Below are positions 39 through 64,000 of a stretch of DNA of 64,000 bases, one piece after another. The notes beneath the pieces are model-generated. The model saw only the letters and a list, made by a program, of their open reading frames with translations. It ran no database searches and had not been told where the DNA came from. Origin of the DNA: Parcubacteria group bacterium (lineage in GTDB: Bacteria; Patescibacteriota; Minisyncoccia; Phycocordibacterales; Phycocordibacteraceae); assembly GCA_028286615.1 (NCBI GenBank), contig JAQBRG010000003.1:13125-77124 (forward strand), in the 5' to 3' direction. Within the stretch, counting starts at the first letter, position 1; the number at the start of each line of letters is the position of its first letter. A program made the translations under genes and the position numbers.

Positions 39-122
39 GGTGCGCCGGGGAGGATTCGAACCTCCGAAGCCAGAGGCGGCACGTTTACAGCGTGCTTGTT
101 TTGACCACTTACCTACCGACGC
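39..122 (-). tRNA. tRNA-Tyr (anticodon GTA), class II with a long variable arm. The 3' end encodes discriminator A plus CC but not a full CCA.
   Basis: Read on the minus strand the sequence is GCGTCGG..GCACG-CTGTAAA-CGTGC..GGAGG-TTCGAAT-CCTCC-CCGGCGC-A-CC. The acceptor stem is 7 bp with one G-U pair. The anticodon stem is 5 bp with a 7-nt loop, U33, anticodon GTA and A37. The T-arm carries the canonical GGTTCGAATCC. A 13-nt variable arm with a small stem resembles bacterial tRNA-Tyr. The D-stem pairing is weak by my folding. Confidence 0.7.
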
Positions 123-43487: not shown

Positions 43488-46343
43488 CTAATTTAAGCCC
43501 GTAACTACAAGGTTTAATGTACGGCCTGGTACGTATATAACCCTCGAAAGAGTCCCTTCATGAAGCATTTTCTCAACCGAAGGGAGTACGCTCGCGGACG
43601 CCAAAGCATCTTCTTCGCTAGCTTCTCGAGCAACTACAATCTCCCCTTTTCGTTTCCCATTTACTTGTACTGATACTGTCACCTCACTCTCTTCTATAAC
43701 CAGAGATTCTGGCCACATCTGAGCATGCACGCTACCCTCTCCCCCCACCTTTTCATATAGGTGCTCAGCAAGGTGCGGCGCGAACGGAGCGAGCATACGC
43801 AAGAGGTCAAGATACGCAGCACGAGGCACTGGCTTCACTGCTTCCATTTCTCGAACCAAGACCATGAGTGCAGATACGGCTGTATTAAGTTTGAACCGTT
43901 CCGTATCAGCTCCGGCTTTTTGTCCGGCTTGTGCAACATGCTTGGCAAGTTCTGGAGACACATCTACATCTTCAACTTTCTCAGAAAGTATATTTACACG
44001 ATCGAGGAAGCGGCGCATACCCTCAACTCCATCCAGATTCCATGGATAGCTGCCTGCTTCGTTATACGGACCGATAAAAGCGAGATACATGCGTACAGCA
44101 TCAGCTCCGTATTTAGTAACAAACTCGTCTGGATTAACTGTATTGCCTTTGGACTTCGACATTTTCTGTCCGTCTGGACCAAGAATTATGCCGCGATTAA
44201 AACGTTCAGCAAAAGGTTCTGGAGTTGGAACGAGCGCAAGATCGTAGAGTGCCTTATGGAAGAAGCGAGAGTATAGAAGGTGCATGGTTGTGTGTTCGCT
44301 TCCTCCTGAGTACCGGTTAATAGGTAGCCACTTCTTAAGCATGGACTGGTCTGAGAAGTCGTGACTATCTTCAGGATCTAGGTAGCGCAAGAAGTACCAA
44401 GAAGAATCAACGAAGGTATCGAGTGTGTCGTATTCAGGAGTCCATCCCTCTCCGAAGATGCGTGTTACGCGATCTTTAAGCTCCTGCGAAGAAGTAAGAG
44501 GCGAGCTCCCGTTAGGTTTGAAACCTACATCCGTAGGCAAGAGCCATGGAAGATGTTCTTGGGGAATAGCATGAGGAGTGCCTTCTGGATCGTACACGAT
44601 TGGCATCGGGCAGCCCCAATACCGCTGGCGAGAAACGAGCCAGTCTCTGATACGGAAGTTAGTTACCCTCTCTCCGTTAACTGCTTCGACAATATCCCAC
44701 ATGGCTTCTTCGTTATTTCTCCCTGAGAAATCTCCAGAGTTAACAAGGGTGCCATTGCCGGTATACGCGGCTTCTTTGCCTGACAGACGCTCAATAATGG
44801 TGTCCATCTCGGCATGTGAGAATCTCTCGCGGGTAAGATCTTCTTTCTTAACCCATAGAGTTGTGTGCTGTGCTGCCTCCTCTGTAGCAACTTCCTTTCT
44901 TGCGTCACTCTTTAATTCAAAAAGAATGGTTGCTGCTTCAGTTATGCGGTTTACATCTTTATGCGACGCAAAGAAAAGAGCCTCGGTTGGTCCTCCAAGC
45001 GTGCGTACGTAGGTGAGATCTGAATACCCTGTTTCTTCAAGAATTTCCCTTCGTGCTGCTTCAACTAGATCCTCTCCGTCTTCAACTCCGCCGGTTATAA
45101 AAGTTGTCCAGCCCTGCTTTGGCCACTCAAGAGCGAGGTATTCATCTGTAGCAGAGTTGTGCACAATACCGATTATTATCTTTCGCTTTACCAATTCTTT
45201 CCCTTCAATGTGCGGATTATTCTCATCTGTAAAACTTGGTATGACCACATGCTGTATCGTGAGTCCGTACTTTCGAGCAAAGGCGAAGTCCCTCTCGTCA
45301 TGCGCTGGTACTGCCATAACAGACCCTGTTCCATACGAAGCGAGTACATAATCTGCAGCGAATACTGGAATGAGTTCTTGGTTGGCTGGATTAACTGCCA
45401 TAACACCTTCAAGCTTCACACCGGTCTTCTCTTTGTTCTCAAGTCGCTCTCGCTCAGTCTTCTTGCTGGTGTTGTCTACGTATTCAGAAACTTTCTTTGT
45501 GTTTGTAACAGGAAGCTTAGCAACGAGAGGGTGTTCAGGAGCAAGCACTACATATGTAGCACCATATATAGTGTCAGGTCGGGTTGTAAATACTTCTATC
45601 GTTTCTTCAAGTTGAGTGCCGTCAGCTGTTTGAAGTGCAAAGGTAAGCTTCGCTCCTTCGGACTCTCCAATCCAGGCTCTTTGCGCTTCCTTTATATCTT
45701 CACGCCAAGGAAGCGGTTCAAGGTCTTCAAGAAGGCGTTTCGCATACTGTGTTATCTTCAAAAACCATTGTGTAAGAAGCTTCTCTTCGACTTCTGTGCC
45801 GCAGCGCTCACACCTCCCATCGTTCACCTGCTCGTTCGCTAGTACGGTTTGATCTTTCGGACACCATTTAACCGCAGCTTCTCGGTGTTCTGCGAGTCCT
45901 TGCTCAAAGAGTTTCGTGAACAGCCATTGCGTCCACTGGTAATACGAAGGCTCGCAGGTAACAACCTCTTTGCTCCAATCAAACGAGGCACCTATGCTTT
46001 TCAACTGGGTACGCATCTGTTCCATGTTCTTGTACGTCCATTCCCTTGGACTAAGACCGTGCTTAATTGCCGCGTTCTCCGCAGGAAGACCGAACGCATC
46101 GAATCCAATCGGAAAGAGTACGTTCTTCCCCTTCATGCGCATGTAACGCGCAAAGATATCGGTTATGCCGAACGCGTACCAGTGTCCGATATGTAGATCT
46201 CCAGAAGGATACGGGAACTCAATAAGGAGATAGTACGGATCCTTTTCAGTGTCTGACAGGTCAGTAGTGTAAAGATCGAGCTCTGCCCACTTCTGCTGGG
46301 CAGCCTGCTCAATTGCTTTATGTTCGTACCGCTCTTTAGCCAT
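43488..46343 (-). CDS. leuS: leucyl-tRNA synthetase carrying an inserted NUDIX-hydrolase-box domain between the editing domain and the catalytic-core resumption
   Basis: HIGH (DLHIGH), KMSKS and AVPAHDERDFAFA (editing) are present. Between that and VNSGDFSG...RIRDWLVSRQRYWG lie about 170 extra aa. These contain a perfect NUDIX box: GGVEDGEDLVEAARREILEETGY (Gx5Ex7REUxEExGU). Confidence 0.9.
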   Translation of the reverse strand: MAKERYEHKAIEQAAQQKWAELDLYTTDLSDTEKDPYYLLIEFPYPSGDLHIGHWYAFGITDIFARYMRMKGKNVLFPIGFDAFGLPAENAAIKHGLSPREWTYKNMEQMRTQLKSIGASFDWSKEVVTCEPSYYQWTQWLFTKLFEQGLAEHREAAVKWCPKDQTVLANEQVNDGRCERCGTEVEEKLLTQWFLKITQYAKRLLEDLEPLPWREDIKEAQRAWIGESEGAKLTFALQTADGTQLEETIEVFTTRPDTIYGATYVVLAPEHPLVAKLPVTNTKKVSEYVDNTSKKTERERLENKEKTGVKLEGVMAVNPANQELIPVFAADYVLASYGTGSVMAVPAHDERDFAFARKYGLTIQHVVIPSFTDENNPHIEGKELVKRKIIIGIVHNSATDEYLALEWPKQGWTTFITGGVEDGEDLVEAARREILEETGYSDLTYVRTLGGPTEALFFASHKDVNRITEAATILFELKSDARKEVATEEAAQHTTLWVKKEDLTRERFSHAEMDTIIERLSGKEAAYTGNGTLVNSGDFSGRNNEEAMWDIVEAVNGERVTNFRIRDWLVSRQRYWGCPMPIVYDPEGTPHAIPQEHLPWLLPTDVGFKPNGSSPLTSSQELKDRVTRIFGEGWTPEYDTLDTFVDSSWYFLRYLDPEDSHDFSDQSMLKKWLPINRYSGGSEHTTMHLLYSRFFHKALYDLALVPTPEPFAERFNRGIILGPDGQKMSKSKGNTVNPDEFVTKYGADAVRMYLAFIGPYNEAGSYPWNLDGVEGMRRFLDRVNILSEKVEDVDVSPELAKHVAQAGQKAGADTERFKLNTAVSALMVLVREMEAVKPVPRAAYLDLLRMLAPFAPHLAEHLYEKVGGEGSVHAQMWPESLVIEESEVTVSVQVNGKRKGEIVVAREASEEDALASASVLPSVEKMLHEGTLSRVIYVPGRTLNLVVTGLN

Positions 46344-59269: not shown

Positions 59270-59569
59270 ATGGATGCTGTCGAGAAAAAAATTGATGATT
59301 TAGCCGGCATGTTTGCTCGAGGTTTTTCTGAGCTGAGAGAAGACTTTAATACGTTTAGAGAAGAGATACACGAAGATATGGATACTTTAAAGGAGGAGAT
59401 GCATGGAGACATGGACACTCTTCGAGAGGAGATGCATGGAGACATGCGCATCTTAAAAGAAGACGTGAAGATTATTCTTGATAAGCACACTCATGCAGTT
59501 CACAAGGACTATGACGGACTTGCTACACGGGTTAAAGATTTAGAGGTATATACAGGAATATATAAGTAA
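59270..59569 (+). CDS. small protein built from 11-aa tandem repeats (EEMHGDMDTLR type)
   Basis: Three 33-bp DNA repeats at 59360..59458 encode EEIHEDMDTLK / EEMHGDMDTLR / EEMHGDMRILK. Confidence 0.45.
   Translation: MDAVEKKIDDLAGMFARGFSELREDFNTFREEIHEDMDTLKEEMHGDMDTLREEMHGDMRILKEDVKIILDKHTHAVHKDYDGLATRVKDLEVYTGIYK
59360..59458 (+). repeat. 3 x 33-bp in-frame tandem repeat
   Basis: gaagagatacacgaagatatggatactttaaag / gaggagatgcatggagacatggacactcttcga / gaggagatgcatggagacatgcgcatcttaaaa. Confidence 0.8.
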
Positions 59570-59848: not shown

Positions 59849-60458
59849 TTAAGACGCGTAAAGAGCCTTCTCTTGAGAACGCTTTTTAAGCCACGCGAGC
59901 GTAGCGCCCAAAGCACCAATGGCTGTAGCGGCGGTAGCAATAGCTAATCCTCCATTTGCCATGTCCTGACCAATAGTCTGCCATTGATTTGTAAGCGCTT
60001 CCTGCATATCCATAGCAGCATCTAACGTCCTGCCCTTCTCAGCTGCAAATGCGCCTCCAAGAACTGTTGCAAGGCCTCCTGACAAACCAAGCATAAAGGT
60101 CATGTGGAGCGCGTGCTTAGTTTTTTCATATGCAGCGTCTATCTTTGCACGCGTAAGGAGCGATGTAGATTTGGATTCCTCTTGTGCTGGACTAGCTAGG
60201 CGAGACTCGGCTTCCTGCATGATCTCGCTGTTCTGCTGAAGATTTACACCTAGTCTCTGTTCTTCTGCTGCCACCTCTTCCATAACCTCAGCGTGACGTT
60301 CTGGCGTTAAAGCAGCTGGTTCCGAAGTTTCTGCTGCAATCTCAGTATTGCTATCCAGGTTCTCAATGGCAGCCTGTGCTTCTGATATTTCTTGTGGATT
60401 TAATGCGCGAGCTTCTCCGTCAGGAACAGAATCGAACTTTGGTGTACTTTCGCTCATA
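59849..60458 (-). CDS. protein with an acidic N-terminal region and C-terminal glycine-zipper hydrophobic segments (start probably MSESTPKF)
   Basis: GLSGGLATVLGGAFAA and GGLAIATAATAIGALGATLAWL GxxxG-type zippers are present. Confidence 0.4.
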
Positions 60459-60719: not shown

Positions 60720-61298
60720 TTATCCATTCGTTCTGGAGGATAGACGAAGCGATTCAGGTAGATACTGATCGATTTCAGCATCAGACCAGGTAAACTGCTC
60801 ACCGCCAGGTGTGCCAGCCGTGTTCAAGCGCGTTTGAGCCTCGATATATTCCTTAGGACCAGTTTGAGGGGCGAGGTCGGATATGACTTGATATTCCGCT
60901 TGCAACGAATCGCGCCGCGCAGACACAGCATCTTGGGTTGCTCTGTCGTTCATAATATCAACGATCAGGGAGCGGTACTTGTCTCTCAACTGCATGTATT
61001 TCAAGGCGGAATTCTTGTGCGAGACCGCGATCTGGTCAAAGTTAAAGGTCAACTGAACGATGAGGAAGAGAATCTCAAATGATGCAACGGCTGAGCCGAT
61101 ATAAGAGAAAACAAAATTTGAAGGGTTCCCCACCTGTAAAAGCAGCATAAGTAGCGCAACAGCGGTGATTCCGATGTTTGCAATCTTTACATGCTTACCC
61201 CATTTACCCGCATTCTCAGCAGCAACCTCCTGCACCTTGTGCGAAAAGACGCTATTTGCGAACGACTGCCTAACGATTGAAAGATTTCTGGTATCCAT
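60720..61298 (-). CDS. SLATT-like 2TM effector protein (start probably MDTRNLS, directly after the nucleotidyltransferase stop)
   Basis: A short N-terminal region is followed by two TM helices (IANIGITAVALLMLLLQV; FVFSYIGSAVASFEILFLIVQLTF), then a helical C-terminal domain. It is operonic with the upstream CD-NTase-like gene. Confidence 0.55.
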   Translation of the reverse strand: MDTRNLSIVRQSFANSVFSHKVQEVAAENAGKWGKHVKIANIGITAVALLMLLLQVGNPSNFVFSYIGSAVASFEILFLIVQLTFNFDQIAVSHKNSALKYMQLRDKYRSLIVDIMNDRATQDAVSARRDSLQAEYQVISDLAPQTGPKEYIEAQTRLNTAGTPGGEQFTWSDAEIDQYLPESLRLSSRTNG

Positions 61299-61300
61299 AA

Positions 61301-62644
61301 TTATCCGATGGGAACGAAAACGTGTCCGGTGGCCACGCATTGTCCATTCTTAATCATATAGCATTCGACATAGTGTTCGCCATGGTAAAGAGTGCTTTCC
61401 TTCTTTGTCTCAGTTCCGTTATCATCTGTTATCTCACCACGCAAAGCGCCTAGGTTATTCGCTTCATTGCCGAAGTTTCTAACCTTCCACTTCACACTAT
61501 ACGGCGGCGGAACATTGTGAGAGGTAATCTGGAAGACTAGACTGGCGCTTTTTTGGATACGAAAACCGCGAATCTGAAATTCGCTAAGGAGCCAGTGATT
61601 CTTGCGCCAACCTTTCTGATTGACATTCACATCCACCGTGACCGAATACGTCGGATTAATGACGGTAGGAATTCCATATGTACGGTCAAGGAACTCCTCA
61701 CCAAACGAAGGGAACAAGGTCTGTAGTTTTGCGACAATCTGATGGAAGGAAACAGTGAGCGACTTAGTCACTTCAGCAGAAGGGAAATTATCGCCGAATA
61801 CCTTCCTCCATTCCATGGAGGCTTCGGGTAAATCTCCATTATTATCGAAATCTAGAGCTTTAGCCGCGCGCGCGCCGGCGGTCTCAACTCGACTCTGCCA
61901 TGCGTTACCGAGACTGATAGCTTCACCTGAAGCAGTGATGACAGTTCCATTCACACGAGTTAGCAAATACTCGAAAAATCCGTTCACGAGAATGGCGTAT
62001 CCTTTCCCCGATATCGCATCTCCTAGGGAGTCCAGATACTGCACAACCAACACCTCGATTACAAAGGACTTAATTGGAACACCGCAGTGGTCGGCCCACT
62101 TCTTGCAGAAGCGAACCAGGTCGAGCGTCTTACCTGTTTTCTTACTTGAGTCACGAATGTACTGCATCTCCCGTACCGGATCGTAGATTTGCCATGAGCC
62201 ACCATTCTCCGTGTCGGGAATCCGGAATGTGCCATCGACAAGTTTCCATGCCGGCAGGAGTTCGACGTTATGGGTGTTGTCTGCGAACTCGATAACCACC
62301 ACTTTACCGAAGGCCTTTATGACTTCGGTTGTCGTATACGTGCTCTTCAGGGCTGAGCGAATCTCTTGAAGAAGTTGCGATTGCTTATTCCCTGCGAGCG
62401 AATCGAATCGCTTAAATTCAGTTGCAGGCATTTGAAAGAGGATGTCGATATCTCGAGGAGGTCGAATATACGTTGCCTTTCCGTAGGAGCCGACAAGGAG
62501 TTTGGTTGAGCCGTCGTATGTCGTGTTCGGATAATAAGCATCATGCAATGCCTTAGAAACGCCGTTATATTTGCGTCGAGCATCTTCCTCTTGAACATCA
62601 GTTAGCCTGATGGTCTCTAGGAATTTCTTGAAGAGCGATTCCAT
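61301..62644 (-). CDS. SMODS/CD-NTase-type (cGAS/DncV-like) nucleotidyltransferase with a roughly 150-aa C-terminal beta-rich extension (possibly an AGS-C-type sensor)
   Basis: The pol-beta-type NTase motif VGSYGKATYIRPPRDIDILF (GS...DxD) is present, with a downstream acidic residue in VVVIEFADNTHNVELLP. The N-terminal helix is typical of the fold. Confidence 0.65.
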   Translation of the reverse strand: MESLFKKFLETIRLTDVQEEDARRKYNGVSKALHDAYYPNTTYDGSTKLLVGSYGKATYIRPPRDIDILFQMPATEFKRFDSLAGNKQSQLLQEIRSALKSTYTTTEVIKAFGKVVVIEFADNTHNVELLPAWKLVDGTFRIPDTENGGSWQIYDPVREMQYIRDSSKKTGKTLDLVRFCKKWADHCGVPIKSFVIEVLVVQYLDSLGDAISGKGYAILVNGFFEYLLTRVNGTVITASGEAISLGNAWQSRVETAGARAAKALDFDNNGDLPEASMEWRKVFGDNFPSAEVTKSLTVSFHQIVAKLQTLFPSFGEEFLDRTYGIPTVINPTYSVTVDVNVNQKGWRKNHWLLSEFQIRGFRIQKSASLVFQITSHNVPPPYSVKWKVRNFGNEANNLGALRGEITDDNGTETKKESTLYHGEHYVECYMIKNGQCVATGHVFVPIG

Positions 62645-63039
62645 GGCGTCTTCATTTTACGCCTCCTCGTGGTAGACGGCTACCTACCTGTTTTTAGGTT
62701 CTAAGTATCGTAGGGTTCCGGGAATATTAGAACCTTTAACGAATAAGGAAGTAAAACACGAAAACTCCCTTTCAAGAGTTTCGTGAACGAATGTGGACTC
62801 CCTTAGAGTTAATATGAACCAAATAATACCTGAATTGAAGCTCTACATGGACCTAATGATGTTTGAGCGAGAGTTGACCGCTAGAATTTAATAGATATCG
62901 TATTTATCGCATTATCGTTTTGTACCCCCCGGGGGGTGCCCGTAGGCCATTTTTCTTACCCCCAGCCTTACGGGATTAGGCTAATTTAAATATCTGTCAT
63001 AAAACCATTTGAGAGTTTTAAGCTAGTTCCACATTAAAT

Positions 63040-63453
63040 TCACTCTCCTTTCTTTAGTACCAGAGTTTGAAATTTCAGCCAAACATCTTCACTTGAGCCA
63101 TCGATGATCCTTTTCAGACACCAGCTGTAAGGAAATATGACACTGTCATCAGATAGAAAGTAGGGGAAAGAATCTTTACCTGACTCCTCCGAATCTCTTT
63201 GCCAATATCCTTTTTCAAGATTCCTTTCAATAACTGAAATAACATAAGCTGCAAACTCTAGAGCGATACCTCTTACCCCCTCTTCTTGCTTATCTTTTTT
63301 ATAGTCCTTATGAATTACACCCAAAATAACTTCTATTTGTTTTACTGACTCTATCGAGAAATCCAATTTAATATTACTTCCCGCGGCAATTTGAATTGCT
63401 AGGTCGGTAAGTTCATTTTGAAGTTTTGAGAGCTTAGCGGCGGTCGTTTTCAT
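63040..63453 (-). CDS. hypothetical protein in an AT-rich island (start probably MKTTAAK)
   Basis: ORF only; by eye well below the window average in GC. Confidence 0.35.
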   Translation of the reverse strand: MKTTAAKLSKLQNELTDLAIQIAAGSNIKLDFSIESVKQIEVILGVIHKDYKKDKQEEGVRGIALEFAAYVISVIERNLEKGYWQRDSEESGKDSFPYFLSDDSVIFPYSWCLKRIIDGSSEDVWLKFQTLVLKKGE

Positions 63454-63479
63454 TACTTTATACTTAAACAACGAAGATG

Positions 63480-63758
63480 TTAAATATTTATAAGTCCACA
63501 AATATTAAGAAGTGAAGCTATACCTATTAAAATAAAGACCACTCCTATCATTCGAGAGAAAAAGAACATGGACGGCTTACCCATTTCCTTTGCCTGCTTC
63601 TTAAAAAGAATGAAATGGGTTTTTCTGTAAAGAGATTCTAAACCTTTAATATTTCCTGCGACAAATTGGCGAGTGAAAAATGCTGCAAATACACCTAGAA
63701 CCAGAGCTCCAGCTGACCAGAAAATATTGTAGACTGTTACAATATTCTCCATTATCAA
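63480..63758 (-). CDS. small 2-TM membrane protein in the AT-rich island
   Basis: Two hydrophobic helices. Confidence 0.35.
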   Translation of the reverse strand: MIMENIVTVYNIFWSAGALVLGVFAAFFTRQFVAGNIKGLESLYRKTHFILFKKQAKEMGKPSMFFFSRMIGVVFILIGIASLLNICGLINI

Positions 63759-63762
63759 TCCA

Positions 63763-64000
63763 CAACCTCTTCTCTATAATCTTCAGCAAGACATTCAAAT
63801 GTCCCCTCTTTCATAAAGAAGGCATAATGTTTCAAACTCGGATTACTTAATTCAGTTTTTTCTCCCTGGATATAAAATTGATTTAAATATTCTAAAGGAG
63901 CATTTTTAATTTCATAGAAGGAATGCCACTCAATTTCTGGGTAATCATTAATATTCCAAAAGCCATCATTATATTTATAGTAGCCCTCGTCATTAGGGGA
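63763..64000 (-). CDS. 3' fragment of a CDS running off the window end (AT-rich island)
   Basis: An open frame on the minus strand to the window edge, ending ...FECLAEDYREEVVD*. Confidence 0.3.

Follow-up and report, generated by a model that had tools for sequence, protein, structure and literature searches.

Near one end of a 64,000-nucleotide (nt) stretch of contig JAQBRG010000003.1 (assembly GCA_028286615.1, positions 13,125 to 77,124 of the forward strand; hereafter the window) from a Parcubacteria group bacterium lie two adjacent minus-strand genes, which encode a nucleotidyltransferase of 447 amino acids (aa) and a membrane protein of 192 aa. A preliminary description, made from the letters of the DNA alone, had proposed that they form a two-gene cassette resembling a cyclic-oligonucleotide-based antiphage signalling system (CBASS), in which a SMODS/CD-NTase enzyme (a nucleotidyltransferase of the cGAS/DncV-like type) with a C-terminal extension is coupled to a SLATT-type effector with two transmembrane (TM) helices. 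All of the profile hidden Markov model (HMM) and fold tests that it had named agreed with this proposal: the CD-NTase/SMODS assignment was recovered by HMM and by structure with the GS/DxD geometry in place, and SLATT was assigned by HMM. The guess at a genome of the candidate phyla radiation (CPR) was also right, because the same cyclase sequence has been deposited, as a hypothetical protein on a 278-kb contig, under the name ‘MAG: Parcubacteria group bacterium JWN64_225’ (MAG, metagenome-assembled genome).

The cyclase, its C-terminal domain and the effector

The cyclase matched the Pfam SMODS family (PF18144) over residues 3–165 (95.6 bits against a gathering cut-off of 26.5; E = 4.8e-27), and the PADLOC model of CBASS oligonucleotide cyclases (PDLC00796) spanned its full length (E = 5.8e-108). 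An AlphaFold2 model built from an alignment of 33 homologues had a mean predicted local distance difference test (pLDDT) score of 90.3, and its N-terminal ∼310 residues superposed on solved CD-NTases in Foldseek with a probability of 1.00. The best match was P. aeruginosa CdnD (PDB 6p82; E = 4.7e-18, 26% identity, template-modelling score 0.77 on the target), and further matches were B. fragilis CdnB, E. coli CdnC, E. cloacae CdnD and V. cholerae DncV. The cGAS/DncV-like signature picked out in the preliminary description, GSYGKATYIRPPRDIDILF, occupies residues 52–70 and contains G52-S53 followed by D65-x-D67, with E128 (within NVELLPAW) as the third acidic catalytic residue. None of the 33 homologues departs from G52, S53, D65 or D67, and at least 90% of them keep E128 (one has D). 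Furthermore, D65 and D67 align with D62 and D64 of the P. aeruginosa enzyme, which are the residues mutated in PDB 6p8j. The catalytic GS...[DE]x[DE]...[DE] residues of CD-NTases are therefore intact in this protein. A search of a phage collection with the cyclase returned four weak partial matches only, and so gave no evidence of carriage by known phages.

The C-terminal extension had been described as a sensor-like, beta-rich region of ∼150 aa and as a possible additional, uncharacterised component. It is indeed beta-rich, with seven strands in the AlphaFold2 model, and its extent is closer to 130 aa; it is a known domain, because it matched Pfam AGS_C (PF18134; 118.4 bits against a cut-off of 26.7, E = 2.6e-34, model positions 4–128 of 129). 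CD-NTase–AGS-C fusions are encoded by ∼40% of type I CBASS, in which the domain is found in clades B, F, G and H, and operons that bear it have a distinct phage range (Richmond-Buccola et al., 10.1101/2023.05.21.541620). In the family studied here, AGS-C is conserved like the catalytic core (mean top-residue frequency 0.66–0.73 versus 0.70), and the motifs WKVRNFG, LRGEI and GEHYVECY are invariant among the 33 homologues. When AGS-C by itself was the query of an exhaustive HMMER search, 922 cluster representatives (50% identity) matched at E ≤ 1e-3, and the match was C-terminal in nearly all of the 150 matches listed.

The second gene encodes a SLATT_4 protein, as judged by Pfam (PF18186; 107 bits against a cut-off of 27, E = 1e-30), NCBIfam (NF033632; 103.5 bits against a cut-off of 55) and the PADLOC 2TM Effector model PDLC00696, which matched over the full length (E = 7e-36). 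In the list of open reading frames (ORFs), its frame extends to an ATG at 61340 (206 aa). We place the true start at 61298, because the homologues all begin with MD(I/T)(K/R)NLS (alignment with 29 of them) and the gene call of the source contig agrees. The two TM helices and helical tail noted earlier were supported by both hydropathy and structure prediction: Kyte–Doolittle 19-residue windows exceeded 1.5 when starting at residues 35–46 and 61–69, and the AlphaFold2 model is all-helical (pLDDT 81), with helices at residues 3–57 and 62–84. The cytoplasmic helices are conserved and rich in invariant basic residues (H94, K95, K100, R105, R109 and R129), and the protein ends in a conserved tail, FTWSDxEIDxFLPxxLRL. 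Docking of this tail onto AGS-C was considered and rejected, since the tail is also present with cyclases that have no AGS-C (loci L031, L033, L034 and L039–L043).

With the corrected start, direct reading of the sequence leaves 2 nt between the stop codon of the cyclase and the start codon of SLATT, in keeping with the earlier statement that the two abut. This junction is consistent with one operon and translational coupling. The corresponding junctions of two relatives, L082 and L083, are similarly tight at 4 nt. The positions of these and neighbouring features are collected in the table.

Table. Positions of the cassette and of surrounding features, numbered from the first letter of the window
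Feature	Position	Strand	Description
Cyclase gene	61301..62644	-	447 aa; CD-NTase (SMODS) catalytic domain and C-terminal AGS-C
Catalytic motif	62435..62491	-	G52-S53 ... D65-x-D67 (GSYGKATYIRPPRDIDILF); residues 52-70 of cyclase
AGS-C domain	61307..61699	-	residues 316-446 of cyclase; beta-rich, immunoglobulin (Ig)-like, putative regulatory/sensor domain
Gene junction	61296..61303	-	TAA-TT-ATG; read as CCC ATC GGA TAA TT ATG GAT
Effector gene	60720..61298	-	192 aa; SLATT_4 two-TM protein, cytoplasmic helical region and conserved C-terminal tail
TM hairpin of SLATT	61044..61193	-	TM1 ~residues 36-57, TM2 ~residues 62-85
Upstream intergenic region	62645..63039	-	395 nt; presumed promoter/leader of cassette
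Upstream ORF of 12 codons	~62644..62672	-	out of frame; overlaps cyclase ATG
Three small ORFs of AT-rich stretch	63040..64000		137, 90 and 137 aa
Giant Rhs protein	~64180..71838	-	>2552 aa; L001 2..7660
Gly/Ala-rich ORFan	59849..60457	-	202 aa
Coiled-coil ORF	59270..59569	+	99 aa; L001 12394..12492
LeuRS gene	43488..46343	-	951 aa; inserted NUDIX hydrolase domain
tRNA-Tyr	39..122

Related loci

A degenerate-pattern scan with one genome per species yielded 80 loci, to which L082 and L083 were added; L001 is the window's own locus. The closest relatives of the cyclase (45–72% identity) are almost all from Patescibacteria/CPR, namely Saccharibacteria, Parcubacteria, Paceibacteria, Kaiserbacteria, Nomurabacteria, Magasanikbacteria, Levyibacteriota and WWE3, together with a few gammaproteobacterial MAGs. 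Distant relatives (26–42%) occur in Ignavibacteria, Desulfonauticus, Methanoregula, Flavobacterium, Pseudomonas, Streptococcus mitis/oralis, Mycobacterium, Clostridia and others.

A small two-TM protein adjoins the cyclase in nearly all loci with a readable neighbourhood, counting the 80 genome loci and L082/L083. SLATT_4 is encoded immediately downstream of the cyclase in 33 genome loci. It is downstream in CPR, Desulfonauticus, Methanoregula and Flavobacterium, and upstream in Streptococcus and Actinobacteria. Several Paceibacteria have a divergent SLATT_4-like protein as the partner, and Pseudomonas has SLATT_6. Full-length homologues of the cyclase (32% identity), again followed by SLATT_6, are carried by Klebsiella/Enterobacter IncF plasmids and an Arcobacter plasmid, where the neighbours are PifC, VapBC, an AAA ATPase, a UvrD helicase or a type I restriction-modification (RM) system. 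Across the relatives as a whole the flanking genes vary, and include HsdR, type I RM, VapBC, toxin-antitoxin (TA) and PifC genes, DNA methylases and LexA-like repressors. Even with L082 (82% identity, same metagenome) and L083 (72%), the window shares no more than the cassette's two genes and Rhs-like sequence; their other neighbours are different.

These varied surroundings and the swapping of effectors are the signature of a mobile defence cassette and not of a core gene pair. The preliminary description had named conservation as a syntenic core pair outside any defence context as an outcome that would count against its proposal. This was not what was found: relatives carry the pair in differing defence-like or mobile-like surroundings.

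Several relatives depart from the two-gene layout. AGS-C is missing from the cyclase in variants L039–L043. In three other variants (L031 3340..5423, L033 5995..8075 and L034 3109..5193), a short CD-NTase of ∼300 aa that lacks AGS-C is followed by a separate protein of 207–211 aa and then by SLATT_4, so that the separate protein stands between cyclase and effector in the place of AGS-C. It has no Pfam match and carries a C-terminal Cys/His motif, e.g. CPCNGDRKLRNCH. Finally, L023 (6001..8691) encodes an AGS-C cyclase, a nucleotidyltransferase-like protein of ∼306 aa (GS...DIDILV) and a SLATT_4-like protein, and may be a two-cyclase variant.

Probable assignment to type I CBASS and competing explanations

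The pair is very probably a type I CBASS abortive-infection module made up of two co-transcribed genes, CD-NTase–AGS-C and SLATT_4. From our own analysis, this assignment draws on the domain identities, the fold, the catalytic residues, the 2-nt junction, the TM hairpin, the cross-phylum pairing with effector swapping and the variable defence or mobile surroundings. When compared with the criteria for type I CBASS (Millman 2020), the cyclase and effector genes are adjacent, they match the PADLOC Cyclase and 2TM Effector models, and ancillary genes are absent. Indeed, the neighbouring genes on both sides gave no Pfam or PADLOC matches to the Cap2/Cap3 (E1-E2/JAB), HORMA/TRIP13 or QueC/TGT/OGG families.

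The model that we propose is backed in its first half by the fold, the active site and the operon structure described above, and takes from the literature the trigger, the nature of the nucleotide made, its binding by SLATT and the disruption of the membrane. In the uninfected cell, the cyclase would be inactive. A cue arising in phage infection would switch it on, and AGS-C would modulate which phages are sensed. In other type I CBASS, escape maps genetically to virion-assembly proteins, e.g. the prohead protease (10.1101/2023.05.21.541620). The active site (G52-S53, D65, D67 and E128) would then make a cyclic oligonucleotide from nucleoside triphosphates, and this product is predicted to bind the positively charged cytoplasmic helices of SLATT_4 (H94-K95-N96, K100, R105, R109 and R129). 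SLATT effectors are thought to form membrane-breaching oligomers on ligand binding, a mechanism that is still a model, and positively charged pockets are predicted between their protomers (10.64898/2025.12.03.692087). By analogy, SLATT_4 would oligomerise into a membrane-breaching assembly, and the cell would die or depolarise before the phage cycle is complete.

Several observations weigh against the CBASS assignment. The cyclase scored below the cut-off of the NCBIfam CBASS_cyclase_b equivalog (NF041117; 117.3 versus 200 bits), and by this sequence measure it is related to that narrower equivalog group and is not a member of it. Searches of the PDB by sequence and by fold gave no significant match to the SLATT protein and found no solved SLATT-domain structure, and the pore or oligomer step remains a model for this reason. 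A scan for promoters and terminators yielded no more of them than did shuffled sequence. Lastly, the immediate neighbourhood in the window consists of an Rhs toxin locus and housekeeping genes and is not a classical multi-system defence island.

These last neighbours bear on two other explanations. On the SLATT side, three unannotated small ORFs are followed by DUF2177, YceG, the ATP synthase operon, YchF and leucyl-tRNA synthetase (LeuRS). This proximity to core genes, a GC content of the cassette (0.46–0.47) that matches that of the genome, and the lack of flanking repeats to mark a mobile element (direct and inverted repeats at the borders of such an island were looked for, and only short imperfect matches came to light) would fit a housekeeping or stress signalling pair, in which a second messenger gates a SLATT channel for normal physiology, whether osmotic or episymbiotic. 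We consider this very unlikely given the patchy spread of the pair across phyla (45–72% identity in Saccharibacteria, Paceibacteria, WWE3, Levyibacteriota and gammaproteobacterial MAGs; ∼40% in archaea), the swaps between SLATT_4 and SLATT_6, the varying gene order and the plasmid-borne copies beside RM, TA and PifC genes. In addition, the flanks lack synteny even with the relative of 82% identity that was recovered from this sample, and homologous architectures that have been tested defend against phage (10.1101/2023.05.21.541620).

On the cyclase side, a 395-nt spacer leads into a short AT-rich stretch (∼1.3–1.8 kb at 34–41% GC). The AT-rich island of the preliminary description is thus real and lies beside the cassette, but it is short and is the variable 3′ tail of a giant Rhs polymorphic-toxin locus. 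Its three small ORFs have no family matches and are probably toxin-tip or immunity cassettes. The Rhs protein, which is encoded mostly beyond the end of the window, has RHS repeats (YD-repeat), FG-GAP repeats, an SpvB-like region and Rha78A-like Ig domains. Since this locus is directly upstream of the pair, and since in L082, too, the pair comes after an Rhs C-terminus, a small TM protein and an orphan Rhs fragment and L083 has an Rhs-like ORF downstream, the pair could be a functional part of the Rhs locus, for instance an element for accessory, immunity or addiction functions in conflict between bacteria. That role is equally improbable, because Rhs-like sequence is present in only 3 of the 85 loci (the window's own, L082 and L083) and in none of the other 82, and the cyclase–SLATT pairing persists elsewhere without Rhs. 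Moreover, Rhs orphan arrays are recombination-prone variable regions that often accumulate unrelated cargo, which also counts against a functional tie.

The chance that the two genes are decaying cargo, and hence an inactive remnant, is smaller still. The streamlining of CPR genomes and the lack of any sign of a regulator or of expression at the locus (a search of the window for a LexA-like regulator came up empty) speak for it, but both ORFs are full length, the invariant family residues of the catalytic triad and of the AGS-C and SLATT motifs are intact, and the tight coupling junction is preserved. Hardly credible is a three-gene system including the Gly/Ala-rich product downstream, which had been put forward as a Gly-zipper protein and possible extra component. 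Its gene is on the same strand, 262 nt away, and the protein is acidic in its N-terminal half and carries two Gly/Ala-rich segments that are weakly hydrophobic. It is not a conserved component, because among 5.8 billion proteins its only homologue is itself and none of the 84 related loci contains it (the genes at this position in L082 and L083 are unrelated), and it has no Pfam, PADLOC or NCBIfam match.

Regulatory surroundings, known counterparts and significance

In ∼13 related CPR loci, a LexA-like gene lies 5–320 nt upstream of the cyclase, in either orientation (L003, L006, L008, L010, L012, L023, L025, L027, L028, L029, L031, L032 and L035; possibly L034). Its product matches Pfam LexA_DNA_bind and Peptidase_S24, and the Ala/Cys-Gly cleavage motif, the GDSM serine and the lysine are present. 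Further upstream in several of these loci are DNA methylases and a terminase-small-like helix-turn-helix protein. This neighbourhood suggests either a prophage or mobile-element immunity region (cf. lambda cI-rexAB) or SOS control of CBASS. A link between CBASS and LexA was not described in the titles and abstracts covered by our literature search.

Two further proposals, which we regard as unlikely when taken jointly, draw mainly on these relatives and not on the window. First, the SMODS-AGS-C/SLATT_4 lineage of Patescibacteria may be a mobile cassette that has repeatedly been placed under a LexA-like self-cleaving repressor, with the lineage of the window captured in an Rhs toxin/immunity array instead. 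If true, this would mean a CBASS under SOS or prophage-immunity control, analogous to lambda cI-rexAB. Second, AGS-C might bind one conserved ligand and not act as a variable ‘nanobody-like’ sensor; a single ligand is proposed because the domain is as conserved as the active site and has the three invariant motifs given above.

Of the upstream intergenic region in the window, only the last ∼16 nt (AGGCGTAAAATGAAGA) are common to the 82%-identical relative L082. The upstream ORF of 12 codons (ATGAAGACGCCATGGAATCGC...TAG) has a GGAGG 6 nt before it, and the cyclase ATG is 17 nt from this strong Shine–Dalgarno sequence. The upstream ORF and the conserved AGGCGTAAAATGAAGA may reflect translational control of the cyclase, or mere conservation of the ribosome-binding region. 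Rfam and tRNA scans of the window found only the distant tRNA-Tyr. Two other genes of the window have unusual features. LeuRS contains an inserted NUDIX hydrolase domain (residues ∼407–510; Pfam E = 5.5e-12), with an intact NUDIX box, GGVEDGEDLVEAARREILEETG, that is located at residue 418 and closely follows the editing domain. The coiled-coil ORF has three tandem 33-nt repeats encoding units of the type EE(M/I)HGDMDTL(K/R), and gave only weak CCDC90-like and apolipoprotein-like matches in Pfam.

The closest experimental counterparts of the cassette are the EcCdnF04-SLATT6 and EcCdnF05-SLATT6 operons, which strongly protect E. coli, by at least 10,000-fold for EcCdnF04-SLATT6 (10.1101/2023.05.21.541620). 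Like the cassette, they consist of two genes, for a CD-NTase with a C-terminal Ig-like AGS-C domain and a small SLATT effector, with no ancillary Cap genes, and the enterobacterial plasmid copies with this layout encode the full-length, 32%-identical homologues described above. Their effector, however, is SLATT_6, with no detectable BLASTP similarity to the SLATT_4 protein of the window. In addition, the EcCdnF operons have gammaproteobacterial hosts and experimental phage-defence data, whereas the cassette is known from sequence alone. A second counterpart is the type I CBASS of the Lactococcus plasmid pUCCL631, which has been listed among identified antiphage systems and comprises a 190-aa SLATT protein (PF18186) and a 408-aa NTase/AGS-C protein (PMC11381338). 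Compared by description only, it has the same Pfam-level domains (NTase, AGS-C and SLATT_4) and an effector of nearly the same length (190 versus 192 aa). In contrast to the cassette, it is carried by a Firmicute plasmid, and Firmicute relatives (Streptococcus) have the SLATT gene upstream.

Other systems share single components. The closest solved structure, P. aeruginosa CdnD (PDB 6p82/6p8j/6p8u), is of clade D and has the CD-NTase fold and aligned GS and DxD motifs, but it belongs to a type III CBASS regulated by HORMA/Trip13 (PDB entry titles), has 300 aa and lacks AGS-C. Among clade D type I CD-NTases, no AGS-C fusions have been reported (10.1101/2023.05.21.541620). In Type VII Thoeris, the SLATT effector ThsH is likewise encoded downstream of a nucleotide-signal enzyme, and ligand-induced oligomerisation and positively charged cytoplasmic pockets have been proposed for it (10.64898/2025.12.03.692087); unlike in the window, the signal generator there is a TIR domain and the ligand is cyclic ADP-ribose. 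AGS-C is also fused to the cyclic CMP/cyclic UMP cyclases of Pycsar (10.1101/2023.05.21.541620). These share that domain, whereas the catalytic domain in the window has the CD-NTase/SMODS fold instead. A Pycsar-type enzyme (mononucleotide class III-like cyclase) was considered and rejected, as Pfam gave no such domain match and the top structural matches were all CD-NTases.

The architecture is thus already published, and the locus is a further example of a known system and no new kind. The preliminary description, which had called such pairs little studied and this one notable, overstated the case: EcCdnF04-SLATT6 has been cloned and defends E. coli, the Lactococcus pair has been listed, and CPR defence repertoires have already been surveyed in the literature. 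What the locus adds is a clean, intact type I CBASS (CD-NTase–AGS-C and SLATT_4) in an uncultivated Parcubacteria genome. Together with its relatives, it demonstrates that a well-conserved, CPR-centred cassette subfamily exists, with 45–82% identity across several candidate phyla. This is of modest use for studying the phage resistance of ultra-small episymbiotic bacteria, and the subfamily could be a source of compact and strongly conserved AGS-C and SLATT_4 sequences for structural studies of both domains.

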